DNA of 37,904 nt, taken from contig JYFJ02003767.1 in NCBI GenBank assembly GCA_000934665.2, forward strand, positions 1 to 37,904. The letters run 5' to 3'. Each line of letters starts with the position of its first letter. Position 1 is the first letter of the stretch. Below are positions 3,817 to 31,831 of the stretch, piece after piece. Both the position numbers and the translations under genes were made by a program. The notes under the pieces were generated by a model. The model saw only the letters and a program-made list of their open reading frames with translations. It was not told the DNA's origin and did no database searches. The DNA comes from Catajapyx aquilonaris. Taxonomy: Eukaryota.

Positions 3817-3927
3817 AAACTAGAAGAGGACGAGGACAACACCCACCTCAACTCGGAGTGGGCCGACCCTGGAAGCCTGCAGCGCTCTTTCCAAGGCATC
3901 AAGAACATCAGCTGGAAGCCCAAGTAA
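3817..3927 (+). CDS. Alternative terminal coding exon KLEEDEDNTHLNSEWADPGSLQRSFQGIKNISWKPK* of the same unidentified gene
   Basis: ccctttgacag acceptor ending at 3816. 36 codons with strong third-position C/G bias, then TAA. Phase 0 matches the donor at 1838. Followed by about 2 kb of UTR-like sequence. Confidence 0.65.
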   Translation, partial: KLEEDEDNTHLNSEWADPGSLQRSFQGIKNISWKPK

Positions 3928-5857: not shown

Positions 5858-6057
5858 AATAAAATAAAAAAAGACTTTCTATACGCCATGTTGTCGTGGG
5901 CTCCTCCATTTTAAAAATAAAAATAAATAAAGAAGAAAATCCACCCACATCGCTATATTAATACAATAATAAAAATACACCATCCAAAATAAGTGCTGCA
6001 AATTTTAAAGAAGTGTAATCAAGCGCCATTTTACGTTGTTTTTTTTTCGTGGTTTTC
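5858..6057 (+). terminator. Polyadenylation signal cluster ending the long 3' UTR of the upstream + strand gene
   Basis: AATAAA at 5858, 5916 and 5968, followed by a GT/T-rich downstream element at about 6031-6057. Confidence 0.45.
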
Positions 6058-9000
6058 AATCAGATTTTTTGTGTGGAGAAAGGTGCAACTTATCACGTGG
6101 CTACGGGTACCGCACCACACATCACACAGTTAACATACATCATATTGCGTCTGGGTATATCATTCGTGTTATATGATCAGTAGTTTCACATGTAGTTTTT
6201 TTTGGCCCCCGCGTGCACACACTCGTTCATTTTTTTTTTTTCGGGTCCGGATAATCACCAATGCACTCTTTTATCCCGAATTTTAAACATTGCGGACACA
6301 TGAAAATGCGAATTTACCTGTACAGTACTGGGAATAACTGCGCAGCACAACGTGGTGTAGCAGCTTTATGTGAAACCATTTGTCTATTTTGGCTACAGCG
6401 AGTGTAGTTTTTGGTAGACTGCTAGTGATTCCGCTGTACAGTGAGCGACGCAGCAGAACCTGATTTTTTTGGCGAAAATCCACAGGAAAAATTTTGTTGC
6501 CTCCTGAATAATGCCCGTGAACCGAATCCATCCGATATCGAATTGCGAATTGGCGCCAAATGCTATATATCCACCACTGCTATACAGTATATAAAAGAAA
6601 ACGAAATACAGATTGCCTTTCGTCGAGTACACACAACGCAATCGACCGCGACAGAAAAAGCCTGCATGCAGTTTTTTTTTTTTCTCCTTAAAAAAAGTCA
6701 GTGTGGTCATCGTCGTGCTCGTCATTGTTGTTGGATCGTAGCAACGAATTTACACTTTTGGGTTGGGATTATAAGAACACACAAACACAGCAAAACAAAA
6801 ACCACAAAAACCACAAAAAAAAAGTTATGCTTCTTCCTCCGAGTTGCGGGGAAGATGACATCGTCGAATGATTTCCAAGCCATGCTGGGAATGACAATTT
6901 TTCTTCCAAAGAAAGTGTATTTGGAAATCACAGCTCAAAAAGTTTTAAGAAGTGTAGAGCAAGGCGGGAGGGTCGTGTTCTCTCTCAATGTGTCGTTTTT
7001 TGTGNCCCCCCATCCTTTTTTTTGTTGAGCAGACTGACGAGGTTATAAAAATCGCAGAGCCTTCCATCTGCATGGCTGAGACAAGTATGTCACTGTTTTA
7101 ATTCTAGTCAATGTCACCCGTTCAGTTTTTGTTTGTACAAAAAATGTATAGTTAGCGACGATAACCGTTATGTTCCCCCAATCTGGATATTATTATTTTT
7201 GAGTGTGTGAGTATGTGTATGGAATATATGGCATGTTGTTGGTAGGAGATCTGCGTTGAGTTCATGGAAACGACGCGTTTCGACGAGTCTAATAATAATA
7301 AAAAAACGAACGCACGTTTTTAAAAATAATAATGAGGGAACAGGAGCTGGTTAGATTACGTTTTACGAAATATTTGCACACCATACTTTTCAATGCAAGT
7401 TTCCTTTTTTTAAAAAAAAAAAAGTTTTGTTTACTAGAAACCGCACCGTAGGATAAGAGAATTTTCATGAAAATATTTGGGACGTGGATATCGGAATCGT
7501 GAAATGGAATTTGGGTCCAAAGGAGAAAAGAGCTTGAACGTTTATAATTTTATATCTCCCTGTGATGAGTTTAGCCAACGAAAAAGAAAGTGATGTAATG
7601 GCAACGGGGGAGGAAAAAGAGAGAAAAAAAGGGGGGAGGCGAAAGATTTCCTACCAACTTTTTTTTCTTGGGCCTGTATGTGCATATTTGGGAGCCTTTT
7701 TTTTTTCCTCAACTTCATCGTGGGTGCGCAGTGCTCGTCATCCGTTAGACCAGCTTGTATGTAGTGCGTCCATTACCAACCAGAAAAAAACAGAGAGAGA
7801 GAAATTATTTCACGTGCAGAGTAACCTGCACGCCATGTTACTTAGGCGGCTGCCACGTTGGAAAAATAAAGCGAGCCAGGTTTTAACCACTGGTTTTTTT
7901 TCCCCGGTAATGTCCTCATTTTTTAAAAAAAATATGGTTCTGAAGGGTTGCATATAACACATGCGAATGTTGCATGCCCCCCACACGTTAATAGGTCACC
8001 AGACTTGGGAATCGATGGCTTCCTTGTCGAAGAGGAGTCATTACGTATGACTAGGAAACCTTGAGGTTTCGATCCATCTACCTGAGCCCCCGTGCAACAA
8101 TGGCTGCCCCACTCGTTTTGCTCAATCTTTAATGGTCAGGAACCCCCTCATTTTAGAGGTCTAATTAGCGAGGGGTTTTGTATGCAGGGCTGGTCGTCTC
8201 CAAGTGCATTCAGGCCCTCTTGCCTCCTCTTCAACGGGGCTCACAATTAGTAATTATGGCGGATGTGGGACCGGAATGTGATCGGGTTGTTTGTGTAGAA
8301 AGTGCGAAAAGATCGATGCAATAATTGGCAGCTGTGTGGCGCTTAACGCCCCAGTTTGTGGCAGGTTGCAGTTTTTGGCACACATACTTGTCAACAGGAT
8401 GGAAATTAATAATTGAAGTGTTGGGCTTCAGGAGCGATTTTTTTTAAAAAGAGAAGCAACAATCATCCTGCATTGTTACCAGACATTCTGCCAGTTCGTG
8501 AAGTGACAGAGGCATCTGGCAAAAAGCAATTAGAGAAATGGGTGAGGACGGAATTTTTAAGATCAGGGTCTCATGTCCATGCCTGCCTGCCGTTGACAGA
8601 ATTTTGGGGGGGATTTTCAATGGAAGGAATTTTTATTGCAGCCTGGTTTGTCTAGCAGGATCTGAAGAAAAAAAAGAGAGAGAGGGAAGTATTTCGGTTA
8701 ATCTGGTTTGAGTGCATACTAACCGCTGCGGGTTGTTCTTATAGGCGATCGAAGGAGTTGGATGCCACGGACGGAAATGGCTTGGGATTCAGCAGGGCCC
8801 CGGTCCAGCACTCGATATCAATATTTTAGGAGGTCCGCCACTGCTGCTTGCTGCTCACGGGTAACCTTACATGGCTGTTCAAGGAAGGGGGGGTTAGAGT
8901 AATCATGCGGACATTTTTTATCCAACCGTTTTTTTTTTCTTCTTCCAGGAGGTGGGCTGCCTTTTGTGTACTAATGCAGAGTGCATGTGGAATGCTGAAG

Positions 9001-9167
9001 GCGCTTTATGAATATTTATGCCCAGGGAAAGTTGGAGTAATTTGTCAGCCTTGTTTCGGACCTCGAGTCGTGTTCTGCAGTGTCTTTAACTGGCTAGGTA
9101 AAGCCTGATGTTACGTGCTGTGATCAACAAGGACAGTGGGCCAGAAATTGAGTGATTGATTGGATAC

Positions 9168-9290
9168 TTTTGGCACAACATCAACTTTGGCTACACTGCA
9201 TCTTTGTAAAAAATAAATTCAATAAAATAAATACATTATTACAGTAATTTCAGCTAGGCCATAAGGCATTGGAAATAAGTGTGAAAGCAT
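9168..9290 (+). repeat. About 120-bp diverged direct repeat, copy 1 (copy 2 at about 11667-11780)
   Basis: ttttggcac(a)aca-tcaactttggctacactg...ctttgtaa...cagctagg...cattggaaataa is shared with 11667-11780. Confidence 0.7.
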
Positions 9291-10247
9291 CAATTCTTTC
9301 AGTGCATAATTTTGGAATGTGAACACTGTAAATTCATTGCAGTCTTGGCATGGACTTTACTGGTGATCATTAGTCATCATTTGAATAAATATATGCAATT
9401 GATTTTTTTCAAGCTCCTCTTTGACATTCTTGTCGCATGGATTTAAACCCCATTTACGCTGTGTCTCGCTGTGCCCACCACCAGTGTGTAATGAGCGCAG
9501 CTGATGCATTAGCATGTCGGGAACATCAGCTGCCACTTACAAATTGGCAAGCAAGTATCCCGGTGACAATTTGGAATGCATGATGTAGTGTGCAGGTTTA
9601 ATCTGCTCTATATTTTTAAAATTTAGCCACTCTCCTACTGTATGCCAGTGTCAACATGGTTCTTGACTTCCTTGCTCACACAACTTTCTCGATGTAAGCG
9701 GTCATGAATATTACTATTGATTGCTGCTGATATTAACACTGCACAAAGGTTGACTTTCCCTTAATTTTTAACCTGTCTGATAATTACTTGAATGTACTTC
9801 GCCTGAGATTTTCTACCCATATTTGCCATAATTATATGCTAAATGGAAATGTGTTGTTTTTATCATAATGGAAGGAGTGGGTCAGTAGCAAGTTTCACTA
9901 ATTTTTTTTTCACTAACTTTTATGGAGATTTTTACAATGAGTGTCAAAATTATTGCAGATGTTTCAAAGCCTTGGGAAAACGTTGAAATTGGGTGGAACA
10001 GCTTCCAGATTCTTGCTTTTGGATTACGCTGACCAAGAGAATCAGGCTGGGAGGGTTTCAAAATGACGGACCTGTTTTGAAGCCAGCAACTTTCAAGCCT
10101 GATGATCAGCAGTCCTCAGAAGTGCATTTTGTGATGTCACCTATTAACAACAGGCAAGTATTACTTCTCGTGGCCATTGACAGTTGGATCTGTGGCAGAT
10201 TTAATTTTCTGCTCTGTCTTTGGTCAATAAGGCGAATCCGTCTGTGA

Positions 10248-10400
10248 GGCTACGGAGCATGTTGGTTAGGCATTCAAGTTTGCATTCAGGAGGTGTCAAG
10301 TTTAATTCCATTCCCAACAATCCTGACTCAGGACTTTATGTGTGTTTATCCTGGTTGATGCCCTTACTGTGTTAGTGCTTCTTCCAAGAGACTAAATAAC
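10248..10400 (+). mobile_element. Possible degenerate tRNA-derived SINE head
   Basis: A-box-like (ggagcatgttggttag) and B-box-like (agtttaattcc) elements at tRNA-like spacing. Too degenerate to fold as a tRNA. Confidence 0.3.
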
Positions 10401-11041
10401 TGCAATATGGCTGTGGGACTAGGGTATAAGAGTAAGCATTTGGGTAGGACGACTCTGGAGGATTGACATATTATGAAACCTGCCCTTTAGATTGCAACAG
10501 GTGCTGCTAGCAGCTGATGGCATGTATGGTCGCATTTATACGCCCACATAGGCAATGCCAAGCATTTAGCCCTTGCTTCACTACTTGTACGTGTAATTAA
10601 AAGTAAATCATAACTATAGGAAAGCCAGTGGTGTTTTGTACTAGTGGAAATATTTTCCAAAATCGAATGAAAATATTGGGTCTATGGCCAAAAAAAAAAA
10701 ATTTGAGTGGATGTAGACAGAGCTCTTATTTGTCAAATATCCATAACTTTTTTTGTGAAGACCTAAAAAAGAGATATCGGCAGAATTGTACTGCAAATTA
10801 TCCCATTTCAAGGCATAAAATTATTACAAAATTTTCCAATCGGATTTGGACTAATTATCCTCATTTCAATAATATTTCTTACAGGGATGTGTATTATTTC
10901 AAATACACTGGGCCTTGATTGCGTTGGGTATTTCAACAGCAATGGGCTGCATACATAAGTTAACTGTAGGACATATTACTCAATTACTCATATTACTTCA
11001 ATTACTCGTTAGTTTGCTTTAAATTCAATTTGTTTTCAATG

Positions 11042-11630
11042 GTATCAGTTACTGATTGGTAGCTTACTGCAAGTTATGAAGTGCTGCAAGTAAAATGTGT
11101 GCTCCCTAATACCTCATTGGCAATTTTCCAAGTCAACTCTCTCCATGACAAAAAGTGTACTGACCTCTTGACATGCGCTGATGGGGAGGGTGGAGCATCC
11201 AGGCCATTTTGACCTCTGCTCACGTAAGCGCCTAGGATGATGGTGGGGATCTCTGGGCCAAAAACCACCTGCAGGTGATTACCCCTCCCTCTTGGACAAC
11301 CCAGGCTTCATCCACTGCATTGGTGGGGTTGGTTCCCTGCAGCTTACACCTGATCTTGTCAGATATATTTAACATATTATGGAGGTGGTGTTTCCGCCTA
11401 ACAATGTCCAATGTAACATACTGGGTCAACAATCCAATTTTTGTGTCAGCCACAAACATGATTTTTCCATCCAGATTTTCCAGATCCATCTTTTCCATCT
11501 CTGAGAGGTCTTCCTTCAGAAAATTCAGACCTCGATTGAATTTCATTATGAAACGTTTGGATAGTTCCTGCCCAGAGCTAAAGGCATCAATTCGGGGGAG
11601 ATTACGTACGAAAGCCCTGTAAGGCATCCG
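11042..11630 (-). pseudogene. Argonaute-like pseudogene fragment (copy D): MID exon only, with a frameshift and a deletion of most of PIWI
   Basis: Acceptor ccttacag at 11617, then ...FVADTKIGLLTQYV...SDKIRCKLQGTN.... A net insertion of about 11 nt near 11270 shifts the frame before VFGPEIPTIILGAYV. At about 11177, PSPS joins directly to HVKR|gtcagtacac, deleting about 900 bp relative to copy A. Intron homology to copy A continues to about 11042. Confidence 0.85.
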
Positions 11631-11666
11631 TGCCACATACCCCAAGAGGGTCAGGCACAAGGTTTC

Positions 11667-12492: not shown

Positions 12493-15400
12493 CTACGCAA
12501 AATACATAGGGAAGTTTTTGGATAGGCGCTCATGGGTGGCAGTTGCAGATTCCAGGGGCCCCATGTTGTCTGCATCGTATGGCACACCGTCAGCTATGGC
12601 TCTGGAAGTAAATGCATTTTGATTTAGAACCTTCGTCAGAGGAATAATGTCACATGCAATCAGCGTGGTATTTATTTCCCTTGCTGAACTTGTAGAACTT
12701 ACTTGTTTACAAAAGTATCAAGTACAGATTGGTAGCGTACTGCAAATTTTTGAAGTCAGGAAGTGGATGCTGTTCTACACGATCATATTGACAGTTGTCC
12801 AGTGCAACTACTTCTCCAAGATAAAAGTGTACTGACCTATTTACATGCTTCTGTCTCCTACTGGCAACCTTCCTTGCAAAGTGAGTAGGGGTTGTGGTGC
12901 GCACAGTGGCAGTATTTTTCATTGCATTTTTGAAGGACTGGTGGCAACACATTTGTGTGATGTCAGAAACTGAGAGGTCGCTGTCATCCCACAAAAGGTG
13001 GTATCTGGTTGGCCTCAATTTGCCCTGTGGATGTGTGTGCAGAGCATGTTACCCAGCACTTTATATCTATCCTGCACGGTGAATTTCAGGTGAATTTTAG
13101 TAATGAAAATGGGTCAACGTAATTTTCTGATGAAGCTTTCTCATATCAGATGGATTGGACTAAGAGGCAGGGTTGAGTTCTAGTAAGGTAATGTTGAACA
13201 AGGTACTGACCCGTCTTGGATTGTAGCAGATGTTGAATCCAGTCTCCTTTGAAGGGGTAATGGTGTGATTCACTATCACCTTACGGACCATGGTTGAATC
13301 TTCATACTCATCATTTGAGCCCACAGGAGGTATGGTTTTCAACACCCCCACCACTATGAAAGTAATAGCTGGCTTGTAGTCTTGGTGAAGTGATGTGCAG
13401 GCACCACGGATGGCAAGCAACTCCGGCTGCAGCATCTTAAATTCACCATCACTTACTCCTTCCGTGAAAAAAATTATCCGACATGGCTGCTTCTTAGTGC
13501 TCCTGAAATTCAGTGTATGTAACATTTTTGTTATTGCTTCAGGAACAGGTTTTAAAACATTATTTAGGTTAGCATTATCAGTTGGGATCATCAACTGATG
13601 CAGTCTTTGGTTTACCTGAAAAACTGCAGCAGCATGTCCTGTACAACTTCCTGAAGGTCTTGAACAACTGGATCCTGACCTGGCTGCAGCCGAGGGGTCA
13701 CAGTGAAGCGAGTGGCCATCAGGTTGGTGGAGGCACAGATGCCTGCCACTGATGGGGAGGGTGAAGCCCCCTTGTCATTTTCCCCTCTGGTCACATAAGC
13801 GCCTAGAATGATGGTGGGGATCTTCGGGCCAAAAACCAACAAACCTTCCTCTCTGACAACCCAGGTGTCATCCACTGCATTGGTGGTGTTGGTTCCCTCC
13901 ATCTTACATCTGATATCGTCGCACATGCTTGACAGATAACACTGGCGATGCTGGCTGACAGTGTCCAATGTGACACACTTGGTCAACAAACCCATTTTTG
14001 TGTCACCCACATACTTGATGTTTTCAAGATTCGTTGGGTTCTTTCCATCCATAATTATCAAGACCATCTGTAGGTCACGCATCTCGGCGAGGTCATCCTT
14101 CAGTAAATTCAAACCTCTACTGTGTTTTATCATGGATGGTTCAGGTAGGTCTAGCCCAGAACCATGGCTGATCTGGCAGAGAGCATTAATGTAGTCCCTG
14201 TAAGACAAAGTGTAAAGATGCAATACTAATACGCCAACAGGCCCTTAACCTGAATATAGACATGCAATTTGCCCTATAATCACAAGGGAATAATAGAAAA
14301 GAAAGGACCTTTGATTCCTATTACTCTGGTGACATTCATAAACCATGACTCACATTATTTCCTCGTCATTGATGCTGGTCTCTGGTGCCATGATGTATAG
14401 GCCCCAGCTGTGGATTACCATTGGTTCTGCCCACTTTAGAAGATCATGTGTGTACAATACATCAACTCTTGGTGTCTCCTCATCTACATCGGCCTCATAA
14501 GATACTATCAGAGTGTTTGATAACCACTGCATTATTGTCACTCCAACACTTGTTTCTGGAAAGGCCTCATCGATTGTGAAATTAGTGGCTCCCATTCTGG
14601 CCTGACATTGGTCATAAGAGCCAAAAATGCCTGTGATGATAATGCTTGGTTCCTTCTGTTCATCCGGTGACATCTCTCCCTGCCCTCTCTTGATGTGACA
14701 TAGTTCAAGAGGGATATGTTTGGCAATTCCTTCGTGATCTGTCGTAAGGGTTGGAAGCCCTGGGTATCGGATGTGTTTCCCGTAGTGTTCATTATAGTAC
14801 ACCACCAATGACGTAGGGACTCCATCTCGTGAATACTGGCACTCAGAGGCTGGCTCAGACCCAACATCCAACACACGTCTAATGAAAACTTGATGCCGAT
14901 GTTTCCAGATAACCGATAAGCCTGAAGAGCATAAATATGTACTATTACATGCAATGATCAAAGATAATCTTGATGTAATGCTGAGGCCTTAATGCTATTA
15001 GAGTAAATAGCTGTATCAGTTGTCGGAAAAATTCAAACTGGAACTACAAAAAGTGAAATAAAATCTTTAGATGTAAAATTAAAATATGTTCCCAACCCAA
15101 AACTGAAATTGTTCAATTTCGGGCACTCTTGGGACACTCTCATTATTATTTGAATTGGGCGTTGAAACACCCCAGGAATATTTAAAGTCAACATCAAAAG
15201 CAGCAATGTGGGCAGACTACTTCTGAAAAGCAAATTACAACGTATATATAGGTTTACCTTTGATGTGTTTCTTCAGCTCCTCTCTTTGTTGATCGTTTAG
15301 CATGGTGGGTACTTCATTAAGCCCCAGCAGTTTGCACATGTAGTCCAGTGCCTTCTCAACCTTCTTCTTCTTCTCTGTCACTGCAATATGGTTATAATAA

Positions 15401-15693
15401 TATCCAAAATGTAATCAGTATTTTCCAACAATATAGAGAGTATACCAACCAAGAAGTTGCTTCCATCCTATCTGCTGGCTGAGAAAGTCATCTGGCCAAA
15501 TATCTTCCTCTTTCATCTCTTCTCCGAGGTCAGCTGGATCTTCCTCGGATGGGGATGACATGTGAGAGGGTAACACTACTCGTCGTGAGATCTTCACCAT
15601 CTCTTCACCAGCAGTGTTCTGCTGTGGAGTGATCTTTTCCATGGAGTGGTCAGCCTGCTCGGACTCTGGGAGAGCTGTAGATGACACTTCCAT
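12493..15693 (-). CDS. Divergent Argonaute-like protein, copy A (about 701 aa; 7 exons: 15693-15450, 15380-15258, 14921-14354, 14197-13616, 13502-13211, 13024-12837, 12601-12493). Short acidic N-terminus, degenerate L1, then PAZ-L2-MID-PIWI; slicer-dead
   Basis: PAZ: YYNEHYGKHIRYPGLPTL...HIPLELCHIKRGQ. MID: IKYVGDTKMGLLTKCV. PIWI: PTIILGAYVT, PSVAGICAS, STKKQPCRIIFFTEGVSDGEF, AIRGACTSLHQDYKPAITFIVV, GKLRPTRYHLLWDD. C-terminus is MYFA*. All introns are GT-AG with consistent phases (2106 nt CDS). Confidence 0.88.
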
Positions 15694-16204
15694 GTTTGCG
15701 GATGGGAGCTGTCCAGTGATCACACCCGCAGCACCATCAACCTTCAACAGTGCTGGTGAGTGTCTCTCTTGGAAAACAAAATGGCGTCGGCCACTAAATT
15801 AACGGTTTTTTTTGGACCAATCACACCCCCTCACTCTGATCTGGCCAATCCCTGGCCGTCTTATATCTCTTCGTTTCCTCAACTGGCCGCTAGAGAGTGC
15901 TGCAGTGCATTTAGTGTATAATAGTTATCAGTTTGAGCCAGTAGCTGTTTCACAAAAAAAAACAGCGACATATCAGAATAACTGTTACATCAAAAACTGT
16001 TGGCGAAAGGAGAAATCCATCAGGAATAGTAGCTATTTAAATATTTTATTCTTTAAACTGAACAAGGTATTGCGTATCTCACAAAGTCATACGCCAAAAC
16101 CATACAAATGTTTTGTAATGAGCACGTTCCTTCACTATACAGAAGACAGATTTTTCTGCAAAATTATAAACGTACGCTCATTATGAGTACGAAGATGAAA
16201 TAAA

Positions 16205-16500
16205 TTACCTGTAATTGAAGCCCTGCTCTGATTTTATTGACAGCCATGACACACATATGACAAGCAGTATGATTACAATAAAGAGGAGGGTTGAATATTT
16301 CACTGAAAAATAAAACTACCGGAAAATACCCCATCTTAGAGAGATAAAAAAAGAAGAAAATCCTTTGACCAAAAATGACATATGCGAGTAACCAGTTCCT
16401 TCCTTTTTTTAAAAAATCACTTGATAGCCCATGAAAATAATTATTTCGGTAATGCACCGTAATAAAAATTCAGGTTCATGACAGTTTGAAACTGTAAGTA
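16205..16500 (-). repeat. Orphan copy of the Argonaute-B/C 3' UTR, including AATAAA (16233-16238), with no adjacent Argonaute coding exon
   Basis: Colinear blocks shared with 17268-17585: ttttattga, ttcactgaaaaataaaact, tagcccatgaaa, tttg(g)aaactgtaag. Confidence 0.65.
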
Positions 16501-17317
16501 AATGTGTGTGAACTACACCTGTCTGTCAGTTAATTACTTGAATGTAGGGCACATATAAGCTGTCGTATATTGGGGGAGGCATGTACGGAAATCCAGAATA
16601 TGACTTACTAGCAGGATACCCGGCGTTGCTCGGGTTATGAAATACTTTTCCATAGGAGTGACTCATTGATGTGGTAGTTACCTTTGCAATAATTATGGCT
16701 ATACAATGTTGGCACATGGAGCATAATATATTATTGCTTGTGCATGAAGTCCAAGCACCAAGGTGCAGATGTCAGATTGTAAGAAAATACACGATACACC
16801 TTAAAAATCCAGCAAAAGTATGTAATGAAAAATTGAAGGTTGTGCAGTAAATGTAGAATAGCATTGAAAGACCGGCACCTCTCTTAGTCATTCTCCAACC
16901 CCAAAATGGCCAACCTGGCCAGGGTGACTGTGCCAGCAGGCAGCTATGGGGTCGCTGGAGAACTCAAGGCCCACTACCATGTCAAGGTAATCAATGAGCT
17001 TTTTTAAAAAAAATTAATGTGAATAAAATGGCTTGGTGCTAATCTGTAGTGGTGTGATGAATTAGGATGTAAGGAAGTGAGCGTGAAAGAGTGTCAGGAA
17101 GAGCAAGAGAATAGTAGACAGTGTAGTAGAGAGTGTAGTAGCCAAGGTATCATGAAGTAATGATCAGCCCAGGCGGTAATTGGCGCAGGATTCCCTACCA
17201 ACACGTTTACTGTATAAATATACCTACACATGATGAGTACAAAGGTGACGCAATATGATGGTACTGGTACCTGAAATGTGAATAATGGTTTCAGGTAGTC
17301 ATGCCTTGATAATAAGT

Positions 17318-17323
17318 TTTATT
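17318..17323 (-). terminator. Polyadenylation signal of Argonaute-like copy B
   Basis: AATAAA on the - strand about 310 nt after the stop, in the same context as copy C (atgccttgataa...ttttattga). Confidence 0.55.
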
Positions 17324-17634
17324 GAGAAACACGAAGAAAAAAAAATTGTAATTTTCATTATAAAGGCAGGTCTGATTAGTTCACTGAAAAATAAAACTTG
17401 ATACCAGTACTTGACTTGAAAATCCAATCCTACAAAAAAAAAACAGAAAAAATCCATCTGACATATACTTGCTCTTGTAACACATTCCTCACTTAAAAAA
17501 ATAAATAAATCACCAGCTAGCCCATGAAAGCAATATTTCAAGATCATAATAGAAATTGTCACCCAAAATCTTTGGAAACTGTAAGAATAATTATGTAAAA
17601 AAAATAATCAAAGGACAAGTCTTGCTGTTTCATA

Positions 17635-20600
17635 CTAAAGAAAATACATGGGGAAGTTTTTAGACAGGCGTTCATGGAGAGCTGTTGCAGATTCCAGAGG
17701 TTTCAGATCCTCTCTGTTGTAGGGCACTCCAAGAGCCATCACACTGGAAAGGACAAGTCTGAATTTAGTCCACATATAATTGCACACGGCACAACACACA
17801 GTCTAATTTTTGAATCATTTCCACAATCGATGCTGAGAGAAGGGCAGAAGGTATGAAGAAGGGAAAATATTTTTAGCATTTTACAAACACCCTGTAACTC
17901 CTCTAAAAATAAGAGCGTGGAAATTTCGCATTGTAGTGCAGCCCAGAGGCGAATATGTAAAGGGGGCGAAAATTACAGGGACGACAACTCTGGGGGCGAA
18001 AGCTCCAGGAGGCATAAAAAGTATGGGCCACGACTCCTGTTCCAACCCTTGTATGAGCACAATTCAAAAAAAAAAAAAAAATGCATGCTGAGTTTAAATT
18101 TTAAAATTGATCAGGTCTGCAAAAGAGAGTGCGGTGAGGGAATAAAAAAGGCATTTCAATTTTAATTCTAAAAGTTCAGAGATAGGGACGTTTTGGAGAT
18201 ATTACAGTATCGGAAACAGACCATCAGAATGGTAATCTCTGAAAACATGTTCACTGGGTTACACTGTAGAAACACCGTAACTCAAAAACTGGGTGAGGGT
18301 GAAAGTCATATGCATGCCCGCACTAACCCCTACTGAGTCAGGTGGGATTAGGGCCGGGTAGTTACCAAGAAAGTAAAATGTAAATAACTGACCACTTGAT
18401 GAACCGAAACCTCCTTTTGGTAGCCTTCACTGCATAGTAGTAAGGGGCAGTGTTGGCTTGCACATAACCTCCTCTTTTAGCGAAATTGTCAGGAAAGCAC
18501 AAGTGGATGCCTATTTGTACAATGTCATCCACTGAGAAGTCACTGTCGTCCCAAAGAATAAAATAATCCACTGGCTTCAATAAGCCCTGGAAGGATAAAA
18601 TCAGGAATTAGCATACCAGGTTATATCATTATCATTCTACATTGACCATGGTAGAAATGACATAGACTGACTTTCAGGGAACACATATACATTCGCATGA
18701 AGAAAGTTCATGAAACAGTGATTGTCGTGGTGTGAATGGATAAGTATTTACATTTCCTGGCCGGTAGCACACATTGAATGGAGTCGTACTTGTGGGGGTC
18801 AAAGTGCAATTCACTACTGTTCCTGAAAATCCATGGTTTATGAGCTGCGTCTCATTTTTCCTGCATTGTTGCCAGGAATGGACATCAGTGTTAGCAACCA
18901 TGCAAGTGATGGCTGGCTTGTAGTCAGGGTGGAGGGATGTGCAGGCACCGCGTACTGCTAGAAGCCAGTTGTGCAATGCATCATAGGAATGATTGCTAGT
19001 CAGTTCTTCCATCAAGATTATTACTCGGCATGGCTGCTTTGTGGTGCTCCTGAAAAGCAGTTCATTAAAATACATCTTTATTCTTCATTTAAGCACAGCT
19101 TTATTTAGGAACAGTTATTAATTTTATTATGATACTTGTTTGGTTCATGCTGGGCATCTTAAGCTTACTTAGACCATACCTGAAAAACATAAGAAGCATG
19201 TTCTTCGCAATTTCCTGAAGGTCTCTGATATTTTCTTCCCCACTAGGCTGCAGCCTAGTAGTTGTAGTGAATCTGGTGGCTATCAAGTCTGTGGAGGCGC
19301 ATACGGCTGCCACTGACGGGCAGTTTGGCGACCCCAGCATATTAATATACGCACTCAGAATGATGGTTGGCAACTCCGGGTTAAATATCACACGATCTAC
19401 AGCAAACTGGGCACCATATGACAGGTTTGTCATACTGGATCCTGCCATCATGGCACTCATATCGTCAGACAGCTGAGACAGAAACTGTGCACGCCTTGCC
19501 ATGAAATTCTTTTTGCTCACACACTTGGTCAGCACTCCCACTTTTGTGTCGGCTACAAGCTTGACAGCGGATACCATGCCCTTGACGCACATAACTACCA
19601 GCACAATTTGCAGATCACACATATTTGCCAGGTCATTCTCCAGGTTTTGGAAGAATCGTATTGTGGAAGGTTGCGGTAGTTCCAGCCCATGGCCAATGGA
19701 ACTGATTGCACGCAGCGGTGTGACAAATCTCCTGGGGAAGTTATGAAATATGAGTAGTTGATCTCTTAATAATTCATTCACAAAGTATAATTGACTCTGA
19801 CAAGTGAGTGGAAAGTAAGGATGGGTTCAATTGTGACAAGTACAAAAATGACTATTACTCACTCTATGTCACTGAGGCTGATCTCTCCCACGACATATAT
19901 ACCCCAGCTCTTCACAATCAGCTTATGGCCAGTTGACATGTCCAAGTAGTTAAGTCCACCTGCAGTCATATCAGAGCCCTGCACGCATTCAGTGGCATGC
20001 TTCGCACCTTGCTTAACAATCTGTAAGCCTGGAAAAAAATGAAATGTGCATGAACATTATGTAATGTAATGGTACACAACTATCAAAATTTTCATTGGTA
20101 AGCATAATTCTCACCTACCTGAAGTACAGGGTCATTGGTACTAAAATAAGTCCTTGTTTTGGTGTCCAACATAAAAGGAGCATCAAAAGTTAGACAAGTC
20201 AAAAGAAGTAGTAGTGTGAATGGACCTTTTAATAATTGGTACGGATTGATCGCGTTATTTGTGTTACAATCATATTCTAGTTGTAGTACCTTTTATGCAC
20301 TTCGTCAGCTGTTGCTTTTGCTGGTAATTCAGCTGCATGAAGACATCGTTAAGCCCCAGCACTTTGCACATAAAGTACTTCAGAACTGGAAGTGCCTCTT
20401 CAACCGTCTTCTCTGTCACTGCAATGGTTATATCCAAAATGTAATCAGTATTTCCCAACATGACAATAAGAGGACCAACCCTTAATAATCCCCTTCCATC
20501 CTATCTGTTGCTTCAATAAGAAGTCATCTGGCCAAATATCTTCCTCTTTGCTTTCTTCTCCTAGCTCAGCTGGGTCTTCCTTGGATTGAGATGACACGTC

Positions 20601-21248
20601 TGAGATGACATTTAGGCTCCCAGGCTCTGAACTTATCACCTGGAGCACTACTGGTGCTTCCTCTGGATTAGTCGAAGCACAGGCAATGATTTCTTGGTTG
20701 GAGGGAGTTATCGCAACCAGCTTTGTGCCACGCTGAAGGTATAACATATATTGAGATGTCAGCTGTACATCTCCCTTGCGATTAACCTTCACCTCATACT
20801 TATTGATACATAGAAAGTTATGTTGCATTTCATTTTCAAGCAAACGAATGTAATACACATGTTTTTTCTTATTTTCAGGATTAAGAAATAAAGTGTGTCA
20901 GACACTTACTTCGCTCACAGCATCATCAGACTTGGTAGCCACTTCACGCTTGTTCCTTCCAACAATAGGGAGGTCATCATCCTGGGTGCCTGTGGTGGAA
21001 TCCCCTGCTGACAATCTCGTCTGTGAGACTTTCTCTTCACCAGATTCATTTTGTGGTGGAATTATCTTTCCCATGGAGTGATCAGTGATCTCCTGTGCAT
21101 GACCTTCCTGCCCTTGCCCTTTCTCATCTCCAGCAAGGGACTGACGGAAGCCAGGATCACCTGAAGCTTTGGAGTCAACCGAGGATCCGTGTGTGTGAGA
21201 TGTCGTGGCAGGCTCAGAAGATGAGAGAGTGGGAAATATCGCACCCAT
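17635..21248 (-). CDS. Divergent Argonaute-like protein, copy B (about 679 aa; 8 exons: 21248-20910, 20732-20480, 20418-20290, 20028-19863, 19731-19180, 19049-18752, 18586-18393, 17743-17635). PAZ core deleted in frame; MID-PIWI retained; slicer-dead
   Basis: Motifs VKLVADTKVGVLTKCV, PTIILSAYIN, PSVAAVCAS, AVRGACTSLHPDYKPAIT, LKPVDYFILWDDSDFS, APYYYA; C-terminus MYFL*. Exon 4 is 166 nt versus 577 nt in copy C. All splice sites are canonical and the frame is intact (2040 nt). Confidence 0.85.
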
Positions 21249-21818
21249 TTTGGACGGACGGTCCGCACCAAAAGGGATGGCCTTGAAGCGATGATGGCTG
21301 GATTTCACTGCTCTTTCCAATCCCTGCTGTAGTAGTCTCCATGTGCTTGGGCACCTCTATCTAACCTAACCAAGGTTGCCAGTAACCAGCCTAATTCCCC
21401 CCACCAGCCACCAGAGGATGCATCCAGGGGTTTAAAATAATATCAGTTAGTATCATAAGTTATATAGTTTGAGATATTAGTTATTTGCTGGACTTAGCAG
21501 CCTTAAAATAACTGTTAGACATTTTTTTTTAACATACAGTACATTACCTGCACAGAGATTTGCATCGATCTAGCCTGTCATCTGCACCTGTAATTGTCAT
21601 TATTGCTTTCGTTAAAGTGTATCACCTTACGTCAAAGGTTACCTTCAAATTACATCGGTACAATAATTTAACTCTGCACAAACGTAACGCTGGCAACAAA
21701 ATGTCAATGTGTAGGATTCACTACAGAAGGTTTGACTGCATGAGTAATGTACACACACACACAATTACCTGAAATGTGAAAATGATTTAAAAGCGTTATG
21801 CCTTGATAACAATCAGGT

Positions 21819-21824
21819 TTTATT
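21819..21824 (-). terminator. Polyadenylation signal of Argonaute-like copy C
   Basis: AATAAA on the - strand about 155 nt after the stop, homologous to the copy B signal. Confidence 0.5.
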
Positions 21825-21979
21825 GACACACAAAATAAGAAGTAAAAAGAGTTGTTTTCCAATTACAAAAAGGAGGGCTGATTATTTCACTACTATGGTA
21901 ATACAAATGATCATTTTAAACTAAGAGAATTAAAAAATAATAATTCAAACCACAAGTGCAAAAGTTTTGCTATTTCCTC

Positions 21980-24900
21980 CTACATAAAATACTTGGGGAA
22001 GTTTGTGGACAGACGCTCATGGATAGCTGTTGCAGATTCCAGAAGTTTTAGATCCTCTTTGTTGTAGGACACTCCAAGTTCCATGGCGCTGGAAAGTAGG
22101 AGTCTCAATTTACAACACGTAATTGCACAGGTATTAACAGAGAGTGTGATTTTCGCATTGCCACAGTTGATGCTGAAGTAAATATTTTTCTACGTAATTG
22201 TCTTTAGTGGAACTAACTCACACTACTACCTACAGGGAAATAATGGGGCACTGGCATGTTTTCACGATTCTAAAAAGGTTCAATTCAATTTTTCAAAGTT
22301 ATGGTATGTGTTTAGAGATACTCTTTTCTTCCGGAGGTGGAGAAAGGTCATTCACAAGCACTGTGACTATCCTAAATCTTTGAAACCCCTAAGGTGGTGT
22401 ACATAACAGACCAGTTTACGAGCCGCTGCCTCCTCTTGGCAGCCATCGATGCATAGTAGTAAGGGGCAGTGTTGGCGGGCATATTACTGGATCCTCTTCT
22501 AGCAGAATCCACAGAAAAGCACAAGTGACTGGCTATTTGTACGATGTCATCCACTGAGAAGTTACTGTCGTCCCAGGGGAGAAAATACTTCACTGGTTTC
22601 AATAGGCCCTGGAAGAGGAAAATCAGGAATTATTATTTTATCATTGTGATCTTACATGGTAGGAATGACATAGAATCACTTTCCGGTCACTTGGTTTTTC
22701 TCTGTGCCCATCCAGTAACTTAATGCATATTCTACCAACTCCCAAGGTGTGGGCTGGAATGCGATTAGGGTGAGGGGATGGTTATACAAGTCGGCAGGTT
22801 GGGAAAAGGTTGCAATGAAAAAAAGCTGTAAGTAAATGAATAAGTACTTAACTTTCCTGGTTGGTAGGGTAGATTGAATGGTGTCTTCTTTGCAGGGGTC
22901 ACACCGTGATTCACTACTGTTCCTGATAATCCGTAGGTTGTAAGACTGACCTCATTTTTCCAGAACTGTCGCCAGGAATGGACATCAGTGTTGACAACAA
23001 TGAAAGTGATGGCTGGCTTGTAGTCAGGGTGGAGGGATGTGCAGGCACCACGTATTGCTAGAAGCCAGTCGTGCAATACGTCATGGGACTCATTGTCAGA
23101 CAGTTCTTCCATCAAGAATATGATTCGGCATGGCTGCTTCTTAGTGCTCCTGAAAAGTGGTTATCATTACATCACCTATTCTTTATGGGAGCAGTCACCA
23201 AACTCAGGACAATGTTTGCAAAGTCTTATTTAGACCATACCTGAAAAACATTTGAAGCATGCCCTTCACCATTTCCTGAAAAGCTCTGCTGACATGTTCT
23301 TCTCCAATAGGTAGTAGCCGAGTGGTTGTGTTGAAGTTGGTGGCCATCAAGTCTGTGGAGGCGCATACTGCTGCCACTGATGGGACGGCTAGCGACTCCT
23401 TGGCGAGCTCCTTGGTCACATGTGCACTCAGGATGATGGTTGGCATTTCCGAGGTAAATATCACATGCTCTACAGCAACCTGGGTGCCATACCCCAGATG
23501 TGTGACACTGCTGGAGCCTTCCATCATGGCATTAATATTGTCGGACAGCTGAGACAGAAACTCTGCACTCCTTGCCATGAATTTATCTTGCGTGATGCAC
23601 TTGGTCAGCACTCCCACTATTGTGTCAGCTACAAACTTGACACGGGGAAGCAAGACCTTGTCAGACAGAACTACCACCACCAACTGGAGGTCACGCATCT
23701 CTGATAGGTCCTCCTGCAGGAGGAGTACATCTTGGGAAATTTTTATTATGGAAGGCAGGGGCAGTTCCAATCCATGGCCAATAGAACTGATTGCACGGAA
23801 CTGCTTCACAAATCCCCTGGGGAAGTAATGAAATATTAACAGACCTTTTAATGATCACTTATAAGTTAGTGGAAAGGAAGGGTTGGTTCAATCTTGACAA
23901 GTAGTACAGAAAGGACCCATAACTCACTCTATGGCACCATTGGTAAGCTCTGCGATGACATATATACCCCAGCTCTTGAGAATCGTCTTACGGTCTGCCA
24001 GCACATAATTATTGATTCCCCTTTCAGTCATCTCACCATCTTCCTCATGTGCCCCGCTTGTCTGTCCTCCCTGGGTCTTTGGTGCCATCTCCTGTGCCTG
24101 TTCGTCACAGCCAGCACATGCATTTTGCAACGTGACCTGCTGGCAGGCCTTATCAACCTCCATTAAGTCCATGGGTCTGTCTGGATTCTGCTTCTGACAG
24201 TGGTTGGCTTCCAATGTCCCTCTGCTTGGGGTCTCATCCTTGGTCACCCTCTTTATTATTTGCCCTTCTTTTATCCAACCAATTTCCATGGGGATTCGTT
24301 TCATGTAATGTACTACCCCACATTCCAGAATAGGGAGCCCTGGATAGCGGAGATAGGTCTCATAGCGTTGAGCAAAGTAATCTGCCACTGTAATTTGCCT
24401 GACTCCTTTCCAAAAAAATTCAGACTCAGAAGCTGACTTGGATCCAACATCCTCCACGCGTTCAGTGGTAAGCACATGACCACGTTTATATTCAATCTGT
24501 AATCCTGGAAATAATGACATGTGTATGAGCATTATTGTATACATAGTAACTATATGTAACCATCGAAATTAGATTTGTGCACTATTATCTTCTTTGTTGC
24601 ACAATAAATCACAACGTAGAGCTCTGTACCTTTTATGTACTTCATCAGCTGTTCCCTTTGCAAGTCGTCCAGCATGGTGGGTACTTCAGTAAGCCCCAGC
24701 ACTTTGCAAAGAAAGTCCAGAACTGGAAGTCCCTTCTCAACCTTCATCTCTGTCACTGCAATGGTTATATCCAAATTGTAATCATTATTTCCCAACATGA
24801 CAGTAAGAGGAACCAACCCTTGATGCTCTTCCATTCTATCTGCTGGCTGAGAAAGTCATTTGGCCAAATATCCACCTCTTTCCTCTCTTCTCCTAGGTCA

Positions 24901-26524
24901 GCTGGACCTTCCTTGGATGGGGATGACATGTGAGAGGGTAACACTTGGTCATTTGAGATGGCAGGGACATCTGGACTCATTCCCTGGACCACTACCGGTA
25001 ATTCCTCTGGATGAGTCGAAGCACAATCAATGACTTCTTGGATGGAGGGAGTTTTCGCAGCTGGCTTTGTCTCACCCTGAAGGTACAGTTGAGAAGTCAA
25101 AACCTTCACATGCTCCTTGTGATTAACCTACACCTCACACTGAATGCATTGATTCCTTTTCAACCAAACACATCCATTTTTCATGGCACCTCTATGGCAC
25201 CCTGACACATTTGAACATACAGTACATTTCCGTAGCCGTCTCTTACATACATTATGGAATGTCAATTTCTCATCATTTAAATTACTCAAGTTCAACTAGC
25301 CCATTATTGTGATTTTATCTGTTACAGACTCACCTCGTCATTTACAGCTCCATCGCCATCAGACTTGGCAGCCACTTCATGCTTGATCCTCCAGATGAGG
25401 AGGCCATCATCCTGGGCTCCTTGAAAGTTTGTGGTTGAATCTGCTGGCGGTGACAAACTCTTCTGTGTGGTCCCCATCATCTCGTCACCAGGATCAACCT
25501 CACAGTGAGTATTATTCTGTGGTGGAGTTGTCATCATTCCCATGGAGGGATCAGTGATCTCCTGGACCTGACCTTCATCCTGCCCTTGTCCTTTCTCGTC
25601 TGCAGCAAGGGACTGATGAAAGCTAGTGTCGCCTATAGCTCCATACATCTCTCCATCATCAGCCATCAGGTCATCCTTGGTTTCTTGCTGGAATGTTGTG
25701 GCCGAATCTGCTTCTGACAAACTCTTCTGCGAGATCTTCAGCATCTCAGCATCAGAGTCAACCACATGGTCAGTATTATGTGAAAGAGCTATCTCTACCG
25801 AGGAGCGATCAGTGATCTCCTCCCCTTGTCCTTTCTCTTCACCAGTAAGGGGCTGATGACTGTCTGTGTCACCTGAAGCTTCATTCATCTCTCCGTCATC
25901 AGCCATCAGGTCATCCTTGGTTTCTTGCTGGAATGTTGTGGCCGAATCTGCTTCTGACAAACTCTTCTGCGAGATCGTCAGCATCTCAGCATCAGAGTCA
26001 ACCACATGGCAAGAGCTAATAAGCTCTTGCACATGGTCAGTATTATGTGAAAGAGTTATTATCTCTACCGAGGAGCGATCAGTGATCTCCTGCACTTGAC
26101 CTTCCTCCCCTTGTCCTTTCTCGTCACCAGTAAGGGGCTGATGACTGTCTGTGTCACCTGAAGCTCCATACATCTCTCCATCATCAGTCATCAGGTTATC
26201 CTTTGTTTCTTGCAAGTTTGTAGTTGAATCGGTTTCCATATTGTTCACTGAGAGCTTAATCATCCTTTCGACAAGGTCAACCATGTGATCAGTGTCCTGT
26301 GACGGATTCATCTTGTCCTTGGGGGGAAGGGTGATTTCCTGAATCTGATCATCCTGATTTTCATCTTTCTCATCTCCAGCAACGGAGTGACGGGACGAGC
26401 CAGCATCACCAGATGCTTTGTCGTCAACCAAGGACAGGGAACAGTGAGGATCGACATGAGATGACTGGGACGGAGCAGGCTCAGCAGGCTCAGATGCTGG
26501 GAGAGTAGCAGATGTCACATCCAT
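21980..26524 (-). CDS. Divergent Argonaute-like protein, copy C (about 1110 aa if intron 6 is spliced at the homologous site; exons 26524-25334, 25076-24818, 24755-24630, 24504-23928, 23816-23241, 23149-22852, 22608-22412, 22088-21980). Long acidic repeat N-terminus, then PAZ-MID-PIWI; slicer-dead
   Basis: PAZ: TVADYFAQRYETYLRYPGLPILECG...IPMEIGWIKEGQ. MID: VKFVADTIVGVLTKCI. PIWI: PTIILSAHVT, PSVAAVCAS, AIRGACTSLHPDYKPAITFIVV, KYFLPWDDSNFS, APYYYAS. Ends KYFM*. The intron-6 donor reads AAG|TTAAGT, which is non-canonical. Confidence 0.8.
25410..26420 (-). repeat. Coding tandem repeat in exon 1 of copy C: about 4 units of about 80-95 aa (ASGD..HQ.L.GDEKGQG..QEITD..S...DS.T..Q..KDD)
   Basis: Sequence at 25681 and 25921 is identical over more than 50 nt (240-nt period). 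The repeated peptide is visible in ORF 25322..26569. Confidence 0.9.
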
Positions 26525-28567: not shown

Positions 28568-29573
28568 TTAATCTTCAGGGTATTCCATTTCCTCTGCCCA
28601 CTTGTAGAATGCATGTAAGCCATTTGCGAGTATCTCTTTGTGCCCATTGCAGCTCAATGGCAATGCATCGCGGTCCAAGGCCACTACTGTAGGGATTGAT
28701 GTGATCTCGTAGTGCTTAATCAGCGAGCTGCCAAGAAAAGGTTGCATAAATTATTATTTTGCATAACATGTAACAAGCTAAGAAGCTAACACACTCATAT
28801 TTATATCCGCAGGCATATAGTTGCAATATATGATGCTCAAAATAATGGAGGACCATAATATACTGACTTATTGAAGGTGTCTGAAAAGGGAATTCCAAGC
28901 CAGTCCCCATGGAATTCCAGCATCTGTTCATTCATATCAGCTTGTGACAGGTCGCGGCTCACATACACGATTTCAACCATTGGTCGCAGGCACTGTGGAA
29001 AAAAAGGCCTTCCTTTACTGTTCGCCTGTTCAGTACCCTGTAGTACGGTATGTAATGCATGCAGAGAAATTTTTCACCGGAACTCACTTTATAGAATTTG
29101 ACCAGACGTGGTAGAAAAGCGCTGCATGGCACGCTCCATCCTGCTCCAAAGTAGAGGGCAAGGATACTCTTTGGATTTAGGGCCTCTTCGGCTGCCACTG
29201 ACAGCAGCTTCTTCTCATACTTGCGGATGAGCCTCTTTCCTGCAAACAGGCGTGAGTACCACTCAGGTAGTGACTCGCTTGAGGTAAATGTGCAGTCAAT
29301 AGAGGGAGAGGAGGTAGAGGCTAAGTCAGGAGAAACATCCGATCCGCCAAGAGAATCGTCATTGCTGTGATCTTTCTTGGTGCTAAGAGAATTCGCACTG
29401 CCAAGAGAATCCTCACTCCCCAGGTATTCTTCTGGGTCTTCGCTCTTCCTCTGCGGGATCATTGATGACATGTCTGTTAATCTCTGGTTCCTGCCACCAG
29501 ATTGATTACCAAAATATGAGTCACTCGTGTTGATCTCTGTTGCTGTGGAAACAATACCGTAATTGTTACTGAC
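28568..29573 (-). CDS. Nucleoredoxin-like/tryparedoxin-like thioredoxin-fold protein with an SxxC site and a Ser/Asp-rich N-terminal extension (exons 29573-29088, 28992-28868, 28727-28568; 5' exons unresolved)
   Basis: Motifs ALYFGAGWSVPCSAFLPRLVKFY, VEIVYVSRD...EFHGDWLGIPFSD, YEITSIPTVV...NGLHAFYKW. Canonical splice sites with consistent phases. TAA at 28570-28568; AATAAA at 28142-28147. Confidence 0.85.
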
Positions 29574-29946
29574 CTGCACGTAAAGGCATGCAAAGTGTGA
29601 CTTTAATTAGCCTGAAGGGCATTATCACAGGATGTGCTGGTGCACAAGCTAATGGGACCAAAACGTGAATAACAACAACAAATGCATGATACCAACAGAA
29701 AATTACTTTGCTTAGTCGGACAGCCTAATTGGACCACTTTTTTGAGCGCATGGAGATGCATGCGCGGTACAGCCAACAGCGACAATGAATCCTTGTCAGT
29801 ACTGCAATATGTGACCAATTACTCAAAGGCTGCAGCCACTGTGATGACGCTATGCAATGCCACAATGAAAGTGATGATTTGAGGAGAAAATTGTTGGACA
29901 AATGGGAGCAAAATGTCTGAAGACAAAGAAACTGAGGGATGTGATG

Positions 29947-31036: not shown

Positions 31037-31525
31037 CTATGAACGCTTCAGGACCCTGCCTATAGGATATGTGGATGACCTCGTGTCTCTCAAGTTTGCT
31101 GTTGCATTCAAAGCGTTTTTATCAATACGTAGGCTCCTACGCTTGAATGACCTGTTGACCTTCAGCTTCCGATGCATCGCTGGCCCCTGTAGTTTTTTCC
31201 CATGGGCATCGGGGCAGTCAGTCTTGGCTGCAACTGGCTTTGTCCCATTGTCCACACTATGATCCTCACCTGATGGAGCAAGTTTTTGGTTCACCAGTTG
31301 AGTTGGTGCATCATTGCCTTTATAATCTGAAGCTGATTGAGAATCGCCATTGTCCAATGCAGCACTTTCTACCTTCTTATCAGGGTGGGCCAACTCAACA
31401 TGAATTTCCATGAGAAAACCTGCGTCAAAATGTTTCTCGCAGAATCGGCACCTTTCTGGTCTAAAGGCATCGTCGAGGGTTGCAAGCATGGCATCAAAGG
31501 AAAGTTCCAGCTCCATTGTTTTCAT
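31037..31525 (-). CDS. Exon or ORF encoding a single C2H2 zinc finger plus a basic NLS-like stretch; possibly the 5' part of the nucleoredoxin-like gene
   Basis: CRFCEKHFDAGFLMEIHVELAH fits C-x2-C-x12-H-x4-H. Basic stretch RKLKVNRSFKRRSLR. ATG at 31525 follows a cattaacgcag acceptor. The 3' boundary is uncertain. Confidence 0.55.
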   Translation of the reverse strand: MKTMELELSFDAMLATLDDAFRPERCRFCEKHFDAGFLMEIHVELAHPDKKVESAALDNGDSQSASDYKGNDAPTQLVNQKLAPSGEDHSVDNGTKPVAAKTDCPDAHGKKLQGPAMHRKLKVNRSFKRRSLRIDKNALNATANLRDTRSSTYPIGRVLKRS

Positions 31526-31831
31526 TGTAGTAATTGAGGCGTAACCTGCGTTAATGGTGAACAATATTGCTATTGGGTAGGCCAAAAGGTACTGGTACAT
31601 TTCCAACCCAGGTTCTGTTGCACCTGGCCAGGTACATATCTGGAGGGGCTTACCTTTATTTTAGGCAAGACAGTTATCAATCCATGTGCAATAAAACTGA
31701 CGGGTTTGGGGAACTGCCCTGCCAACCGCTGCAAGTCAAAAGCTCTACATGCCAGTGTTGACTGTCAACAAGGTTGACCTGAATAGTTACCAAGGGAAAT
31801 GGCAACAATTTAATTTTTAGACTTTTCCGAA

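Follow-up and report, generated by a model that had tools for sequence, protein, structure and literature searches.

In Argonaute proteins, the YKQK motif (Y529, K533, Q545 and K570 in human AGO2 numbering) anchors the guide's 5' phosphate and stacks on its first base (PMC12908457, PMC4390867). Conservation of this motif is high, and small-RNA loading in human and fly Argonautes was abolished when two of its positions were mutated (PMC12908457). A departure from this motif is described in nematode WAGOs, which use 5'-triphosphate 22G-RNA guides and have an HKQK pocket, a single change away from YKQK (PMC12908457; Seroussi et al. preprint); WAGOs also have disordered N-terminal regions (PMC12908457; preprint 10.64898/2025.12.19.695459). 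Med13, a guide-less protein, is described as retaining a fold like that of Argonautes around a nucleic-acid channel that has diverged strongly (10.1101/2024.10.10.617571), and dipteran Ago2 duplications are reported as lineage-specific Argonaute duplicates in insects (PMC4824172). In our literature search, no comparable cases were found beyond WAGOs and Med13, and the part of it aimed at tandem, lineage-specific Argonautes whose pockets are altered gave only plant gene-family surveys. Here, we describe an array of Argonaute-like genes on contig JYFJ02003767.1 of Catajapyx aquilonaris (positions 1-37,904), a eukaryotic stretch of 37,904 nucleotides (nt) with short GT-AG introns, hereafter referred to as the window.

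Searching the window with the copies themselves (tblastn) and with Pfam delimited four Argonaute-like units in a minus-strand tandem array, namely fragment D and genes A, B and C, in that order. In place of YKQK, A has L(or N)KKK, B has VKKM and C has LKKM. With a probability of roughly one half, we infer that A, B and C are selected Argonaute-derived proteins that would lack canonical 5'-monophosphate guide anchoring.

Compared with human AGO1-4, which are their best matches in both sequence and fold, the three proteins show the same PAZ-L2-MID-PIWI order (with PAZ in A and C only), and A keeps K533, C546, R761, R812 and the ...MYFA-type C-terminal end. They differ in having no N domain, with most of L1 replaced by an acidic tail, as well as in the pocket, including the state of K566 (D/D/N in A, B and C), and in A all four slicer residues are changed. 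With nematode WAGOs they share a lineage-specific Argonaute expansion and a diverged 5'-end pocket. However, in WAGOs only the Tyr is altered (to His) while K, Q and K are kept, and an HK-to-AA mutation still abolishes loading (PMC12908457), whereas in A-C the Tyr has become aliphatic or Asn, the Q is a K, K566 is acidic or an amide, and K570 is lost in two copies. The HKQK motif is not present in the A-C pockets, and the likeness to WAGOs is a pocket analogy that implies no kinship. Med13 offers a precedent for a guide-less scaffold role of the Argonaute fold, but it is ancient, eukaryote-wide and not detectably of the AGO clade, whereas A-C are young, fast-evolving and plainly AGO-derived. 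The repeated duplication and fast evolution of AGO-clade genes also recall what is described for the dipteran Ago2 duplicates.

Pocket residues and family membership

The AGO2 numbering was fixed by phmmer alignments to human AGO2 chains. The Y529 column is never aromatic in the three genes; depending on the aligner, A has N or L there, B shows V or a gap and C has L, and in D the column falls within a deletion. K533 remains K in A, B and C and is M in D, after a 27-nt deletion. Q545 is K in all three genes, encoded by AAG in each, and Q (CAG) in D, while K566 is D in A and B (GAT), N in C (AAT) and K in D (AAG). Finally, K570 is K in A, M in B and C, and K (AAG) in D. Three of the five pocket positions are changed in A and four of the five in B and C; within YKQK, K533 is the only residue kept in all three copies, and K570 is kept in A alone. 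A preliminary description, made from the sequence alone, had reported the loss of the Tyr, the retention of K533, a Q545-to-K change in all three copies and the replacement of one or two Lys, and had stated that pseudogene D keeps TQ and SDKIRCK. The strings that it quoted were all found in the minus-strand translations, where their codons could be located, and each of these readings agrees with the phmmer alignments: the replaced Lys are K566 (D/D/N) and K570 (K/M/M), and Q545, K566 and K570 are present in D. In human AGO2, K566 and R812 also take part in phosphate binding. R812 is kept in A, B and C, and with it as a sixth position the pocket retains 3, 2 and 2 of 6 residues, respectively.

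To place these states within the family, the MID regions of the 150 best representatives of a protein cluster search were aligned with A-C. Y529 is found in 139 of them, K533 in 147, Q545 in 142 (with K in none), K566 in 149 and K570 in 146, the other 4 having R. Of the 150, 21 deviate at one or more pocket positions, 3 are substituted at two positions and none at three, and two further representatives lack two pocket columns as gaps. The pocket states of A-C are very rare relative to the Argonaute family.

The pocket is not a special case within A-C, since its loss is in proportion to that in the rest of the protein. When an invariant column is defined as one at least 85% conserved, the MID exons keep 11/19 (A), 8/19 (B) and 9/19 (C) invariants, and the full-length proteins keep 36/71, 31/71 and 36/71, relative to 45 full-length Argonautes drawn from the same 150. 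The retained columns are mainly G, P, S, A, C and W. The slicer tetrad D597/E637/D669/H807 reads Y/P/E/R in A, Y/E/E/V in B and H/E or H (aligner-dependent)/E/S in C; in A, the Tyr in place of catalytic D597 is encoded at 13795-13797. By phmmer, the PIWI domain of A aligned to residues 656-708 of human AGO2 and, in AGO3, to the counterpart of 758-816; the similarity to AGO2 ends after residue 708, and the KRHHTR stretch that canonical Argonautes have there is unrecognisable. Guide-backbone invariants are also lost (the K709/H712/R714 columns, T759 and S798).

Membership of the AGO clade was supported by several searches. Against PDB chains, phmmer matched the MID exons of A, B and C to human AGO2 with E 8.6e-19, 2.4e-11 and 1.1e-07, respectively, and all of their 32, 32 and 30 matches are human AGO1-4, AtAGO10, KpAGO or one unnamed chain (5the), with no chain named Piwi, Siwi, Aub or Miwi among them. 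The MID exon of A (193 residues, 60-row alignment) was the only one folded with AlphaFold2, and its model reached a mean predicted local distance difference test score (pLDDT) of 87.6 and a predicted template modelling score (pTM) of 0.67, with a low-confidence loop at 101-120; as the model leans on the homologues in its alignment, these values show sequence-fold compatibility only. A Foldseek search of this model against PDB placed human AGO2 on top (E 7e-11, query TM-score (TMq) 0.76-0.78, identity about 28-30%). By sequence and fold, A-C are derived AGO-clade Argonautes.

The search of 1.84 billion cluster representatives (NCBI and UniRef included) gave 155 matches at E up to 0.001; identity never exceeded 38%, and it was at most 35% among the top-scoring matches. 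A homologue search with the MID exon of A, directed at longer proteins, scored none. Five of the top representatives carry names of Argonautes from distant animals, e.g., argonaute 1 of a monogenean flatworm and an argonaute-3-like protein of a mantis shrimp, and the ESM Atlas returned generic Piwi-domain clusters only.

In gene A, an acidic N-terminal tail and an L1 remnant are followed by PAZ, L2, MID and PIWI. Pfam PAZ scored 39.0 bits in A and 41.7 bits in C. B gave no PAZ match; compared with C, an in-frame deletion of net 411 nt has taken away its PAZ core and most of L2 (exon 4, 19863-20028). The frame and the conserved L2 end (..KSWGIYV..) are nonetheless kept in that exon. Pfam Piwi matches lie above the cutoff in exons of A and C, whereas the two matches of B scored 25.5 and 23.5, under the cutoff of 28.9. 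As to the N domain, tblastn with three full-length Argonautes as queries gave no N-domain match in the window; all three copies show gaps at the invariant columns of N/L1, and the N-terminus is an acidic tail running from the shared ATG.

Selection on the reading frames

Nei-Gojobori estimates from the tryptophan (Trp) motif described below to the stop codon gave ratios of nonsynonymous to synonymous substitution (dN/dS) of 0.46 for A-B (513 codons), 0.46 for A-C (640 codons) and 0.63 for B-C (521 codons), at synonymous divergences (dS) of 1.10, 1.08 and 0.38, respectively. Under neutrality, 11.5 stop-creating substitutions would be expected in B, 12 in C and 45 in A, while none was seen (P 1e-05 or less). 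Moreover, the insertions and deletions (indels) between B and C have lengths divisible by three in exons 3 and 5-8, those of exons 2 and 4 are in frame on balance, and those in introns have any length. Identity between B and C is 78-84% in exons (61% in exon 4, across the PAZ deletion) and 53-78% in introns other than the short one. Weakly constrained as they are, the reading frames were kept open by selection through most of their history. In windows of 40 codons, B-C dN/dS is 0.25-0.48 over the Trp motif, the start of MID, the WDD stretch of PIWI and the C-terminus, and 0.79-1.42 over the pocket; it lies near 1 in many windows.

These data bear directly on whether the whole array is dying or already dead, that is, composed of genes that were functional for most of their history, hence the open frames, and are now unexpressed or non-functional pseudogenes; the pocket changes would then belong to that decay. 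We consider this unlikely, though with a real chance of being right. D is an evident pseudogene fragment, C carries a TT splice donor, B has no PAZ, B-C dN/dS reaches 0.63 overall and approaches 1 in many windows, half of the family invariants are gone, and no close relative was found among the 1.84 billion representatives. Nevertheless, A and B are complete GT-AG models with no stop or frameshift, full neutrality would predict 11-45 stop-creating changes per lineage (probability of zero 1e-05 or less), exonic indels preserve the frame singly or in sum, which intronic ones do not, and some segments are clearly constrained (0.25-0.48). An 8-nt insertion in A likewise sits exactly inside the short intron, where it is harmless.

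The best-conserved part of the genes is no RNA-binding site but an acidic Trp motif (...S.S.E.PA.LGEE.KE.DIWP.DF..., of which A reads PADLGEE), located ahead of the truncated L1. Its dN/dS is 0.28-0.60, and its three-way nucleotide identity is 0.7-0.83 (30-nt windows), as compared to a pairwise identity of 0.60-0.78 for the MID exons. It may be a short linear interaction motif.

The shared Q-to-K change and the fate of the pocket

The preliminary description had also suggested that the shared Q-to-K change looks selected, which the history of the array does not support. A tree was built on 140 columns, with 40 of the 78 eligible outgroup rows. A-D form one clade (support 100/99), and in the best tree D falls outside A+B+C (support 90/71), so that a single change in the common stem of A+B+C suffices and would most simply account for K545, which is encoded by the same AAG codon in all three. 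The character counts are in mild conflict: D is ancestral, and A, B and C derived, in four columns (545, 562, 566 and 571), and two derived residues are found in A and D only (568R and 600R). Since A, B and C agree anyway in 143 of the 376 ungapped MID+PIWI columns (38%), the retention of K545 in three copies is unremarkable. An arrangement with A and D as sisters costs 1.25 log-likelihood units (approximately unbiased test, p-AU 0.46) and is neither favoured nor rejected; under it, the Q-to-K change and the loss of K566 would each have occurred twice, which would be striking.

Gene conversion has probably also affected the array. In the segment comprising the Trp motif and L1 (A 15258-15575 versus C 24630-24943), dS between A and C is 0.36, as compared to 1.05-1.4 in the rest of the gene, and in that segment C is nearer to A (74% amino-acid identity) than to B (63%). 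This pattern suggests an exchange between the non-adjacent copies A and C in their 5' part. Around codon 545, however, A resembles D, not B or C.

As to what the pocket does, the preliminary description had offered either a changed 5'-end specificity or a loss of guide binding. Neither half conflicts with the data; the balance tips towards loss or relaxation, and a maintained new specificity is less favoured, given that the pocket changes occur amid a general loss of invariants and that dN/dS over the B-C pocket is 0.79-1.42. Under the idea of a new specificity, at least A would still bind a guide through a rebuilt 5'-end pocket, in which the Tyr is lost, a Lys has moved from 566 to 545 and an Asp has been added, and which would prefer a triphosphate, hydroxyl, cap-like or metal-bridged phosphate end. 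This is doubtful in our view. Gene A does retain PAZ, K533, K570, R761, R812 and the hydrophobic ...MYFA end, its count of basic residues is unchanged (K566 lost, K545 gained), all three copies share K545 together with an unchanged G.LTKC strand around it, and the HKQK pocket of WAGOs is a precedent for pocket divergence tied to guide 5' chemistry (PMC12908457; Seroussi et al. preprint). However, three to four of the five positions are altered here against one in WAGOs, K570 is lost as well in B and C and PAZ in B, the guide-backbone invariants listed above are gone too, the B-C pocket region evolves at a dN/dS of about 0.8-1.4, and K545 requires only one ancestral change. Moreover, an Asp at 566 would be expected to repel phosphate unless a metal intervenes, or else to pair with K545.

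It is improbable that A, and perhaps also the form ancestral to the array, works as an Argonaute-derived protein with a K545-D566 charge-swapped pocket that either recognises a non-monophosphate 5' end or is closed by the Asp as a built-in phosphate mimic, making it a guide-free Argonaute that signals via the acidic Trp motif, which in that event could engage the Trp-binding pockets of canonical Argonautes or deadenylase factors.

Loss of canonical 5'-monophosphate anchoring is judged the likeliest state in view of the changed pocket positions, together with the dead slicer site, the absence of an N domain, the lack of PAZ in B and the near-neutral pocket region. On this account, the region is a birth-and-death tandem array of lineage-specific AGO-clade genes, made up of three copies of full length plus a dead fragment. 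Their proteins keep the PAZ (in A and C), L2, MID and PIWI folds, with the N domain replaced by an acidic, disordered tail, and have lost residues of canonical function, namely the slicer tetrad, most of the motif anchoring the 5' phosphate and part of the guide-backbone contacts. Selection still keeps the frames open while no longer constraining the pocket itself, at least in B and C. The sequence shows the anatomy, the residue states with their rarity, and the selection on the frames, whereas lost guide anchoring and a scaffold role are inferred. If A-C are active at all, they are probably catalytically dead Argonaute-derived scaffolds.

Several observations weigh against this account. With K533, K570, R761 and R812 kept and K545 gained, A still has four basic side chains in its pocket that could bind a phosphate group, and it is also the slowest-evolving copy (end branch 0.12 versus 0.32-0.66 for the others). 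The 40-codon windows behind the B-C pocket values of 0.79-1.42 are small and noisy, and values near 1 may mix positive and purifying selection; a dN/dS below 1 does not identify which part of a protein, or which purpose, is under selection. In addition, the gene models derive from comparing three paralogues only.

Layout of the array and its wider meaning

Gene models were obtained by enumerating in-frame GT...AG pairs between adjacent open frames, and a junction was kept if it fell at the same place in all copies. The coordinates are collected in Table 1.

Table 1. Coordinates of the array units and of the features discussed, all within the window.
Feature	Position	Strand	Basis or detail
Fragment D	11140..11648	-	Lone broken MID-exon copy; tblastn, frames, DNA alignment
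D pocket codons	Q 11421-11423 (Q545); K 11355-11357 (K566); K 11343-11345 (K570)	-	Q in LTQYV; both K in SDKIRCK
Gene A	12493..15693	-	7 exons, 701 codons; junction enumeration, assembled open reading frame (ORF), Pfam PAZ and Piwi
Gene A exons	15693-15450, 15380-15258, 14921-14354, 14197-13616, 13502-13211, 13024-12837, 12601-12493	-	
Gene A MID exon	13616..14197	-	Equivalent of human AGO2 468-655
A pocket codons, LENIK and 545	LENIK 14014-14028; L 14026-14028 (Y529); K 14014-14016 (K533); K 13978-13980 (Q545, in LTKCV)	-	
A pocket codons, CDDIRCK	D 13915-13917 (K566); K 13903-13905 (K570)	-	
Gene B	17635..21248	-	8 exons, 679 codons; junction enumeration, assembled ORF
Gene B exons	21248-20910, 20732-20480, 20418-20290, 20028-19863, 19731-19180, 19049-18752, 18586-18393, 17743-17635	-	
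B pocket codons (19449..19574)	V 19572-19574; K 19560-19562; K 19524-19526; D 19461-19463; M 19449-19451	-	VSAVK at 19560-19574
Gene C	21980..26524	-	8 exons, 1110 codons; junction enumeration, assembled ORF, Pfam
Gene C exons	26524-25334, 25076-24818, 24755-24630, 24504-23928, 23816-23241, 23149-22852, 22608-22412, 22088-21980	-	
C pocket codons (23525..23650)	L 23648-23650; K 23636-23638; K 23600-23602; N 23537-23539; M 23525-23527	-	LPRVK at 23636-23650
Gene C splice donor after exon 6	22850..22851	-	TT (TTAAGT); A has GTCAGT, B has GTAAAT
Acidic Trp motif	A 15450..15575; B about 20480-20605; C about 24818-24943	-	
Short intron, GTTGGT...TTGCAG	A 15381..15449 (69 nt); B 20419-20479 (61 nt); C 24756-24817 (62 nt)	-	

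The modelled reading frames of A, B and C are complete. They open at a common ATG (M-E/D/G...TLP/S.SEP) and close alike, on ...HERLS.NFP.YF plus A, L or M. The introns of A are GT-AG throughout, and the models of A and B contain no stop, frameshift or broken splice site. Among the A-C models, the donor after exon 6 of C is the sole non-GT donor; using the closest in-frame GT (last exon base 22903) would remove 17 PIWI codons. The first exon of C encodes a long acidic N-terminal part (421 open codons) bearing a tandem repeat at 25578-26009 (240 bp, 1.8 copies, 91% matches) that accounts for much of the extra length of C. Fragment D, a pseudogene by its disrupted frame, has lost 27 nt across the Y529-K533 stretch and gained an insertion of 11 nt that shifts the frame; its homology stops after PSPSA.

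No two of the three short-intron lengths leave the same remainder on division by three. The frame beyond the intron nevertheless fits in every copy, which supports the intron and rules out a shared or programmed frameshift. Such a programmed shift between frames near 15450, 20480 and 24818 had been considered and was rejected, as the shift needed differs between copies (0, +1 and +2), whereas one GT-AG intron fits all. Between B and C, this intron is 95% identical, with flanking exons at 78-79%; a branch-point-like TACTGAT lies about 26 nt before the AG, and one of its frames resembles an Argonaute L1 strand (MLGN.DY.LDI.IAV), as if coding sequence had become an intron.

Beyond the array, a CLCA N-terminal domain was matched at 33095-33433 on the plus strand (E 1.2e-07, 31.9 bits, above cutoff), so the adjoining plus-strand gene is CLCA-like; the other plus-strand ORFs, up to about 37800, gave no Pfam match. 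Between the array and this gene lie two open frames on the minus strand (28959-29606 and 31037-31660), one with a weak thioredoxin-like match (20.1 bits, cutoff 27) and the other with a C2H2-like CxxC...HxxxxH pattern seen by eye and no Pfam match. Positions 1-11000 are gene-poor and of low complexity, with many open frames derived from poly-purine/pyrimidine tracts and a single N at 7005; no Argonaute-like match was found there. No Rfam family reached its gathering score across the window.

What the array means depends on which of these accounts holds. If it is merely decaying, it is a case of ordinary gene birth and death. If either variant of the charge-swapped pocket were true, it would represent a new eukaryotic Argonaute subtype. 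RNA binding by A, if retained, would make the protein a natural experiment in how 5' ends are recognised, one that goes further than the change in nematode WAGOs, a case itself still unexplained. Few features of Argonautes vary as little as the YKQK pocket, and a fold that selection maintains after the loss of this pocket together with slicer site and N domain would reveal to what other uses the Argonaute scaffold can be put.

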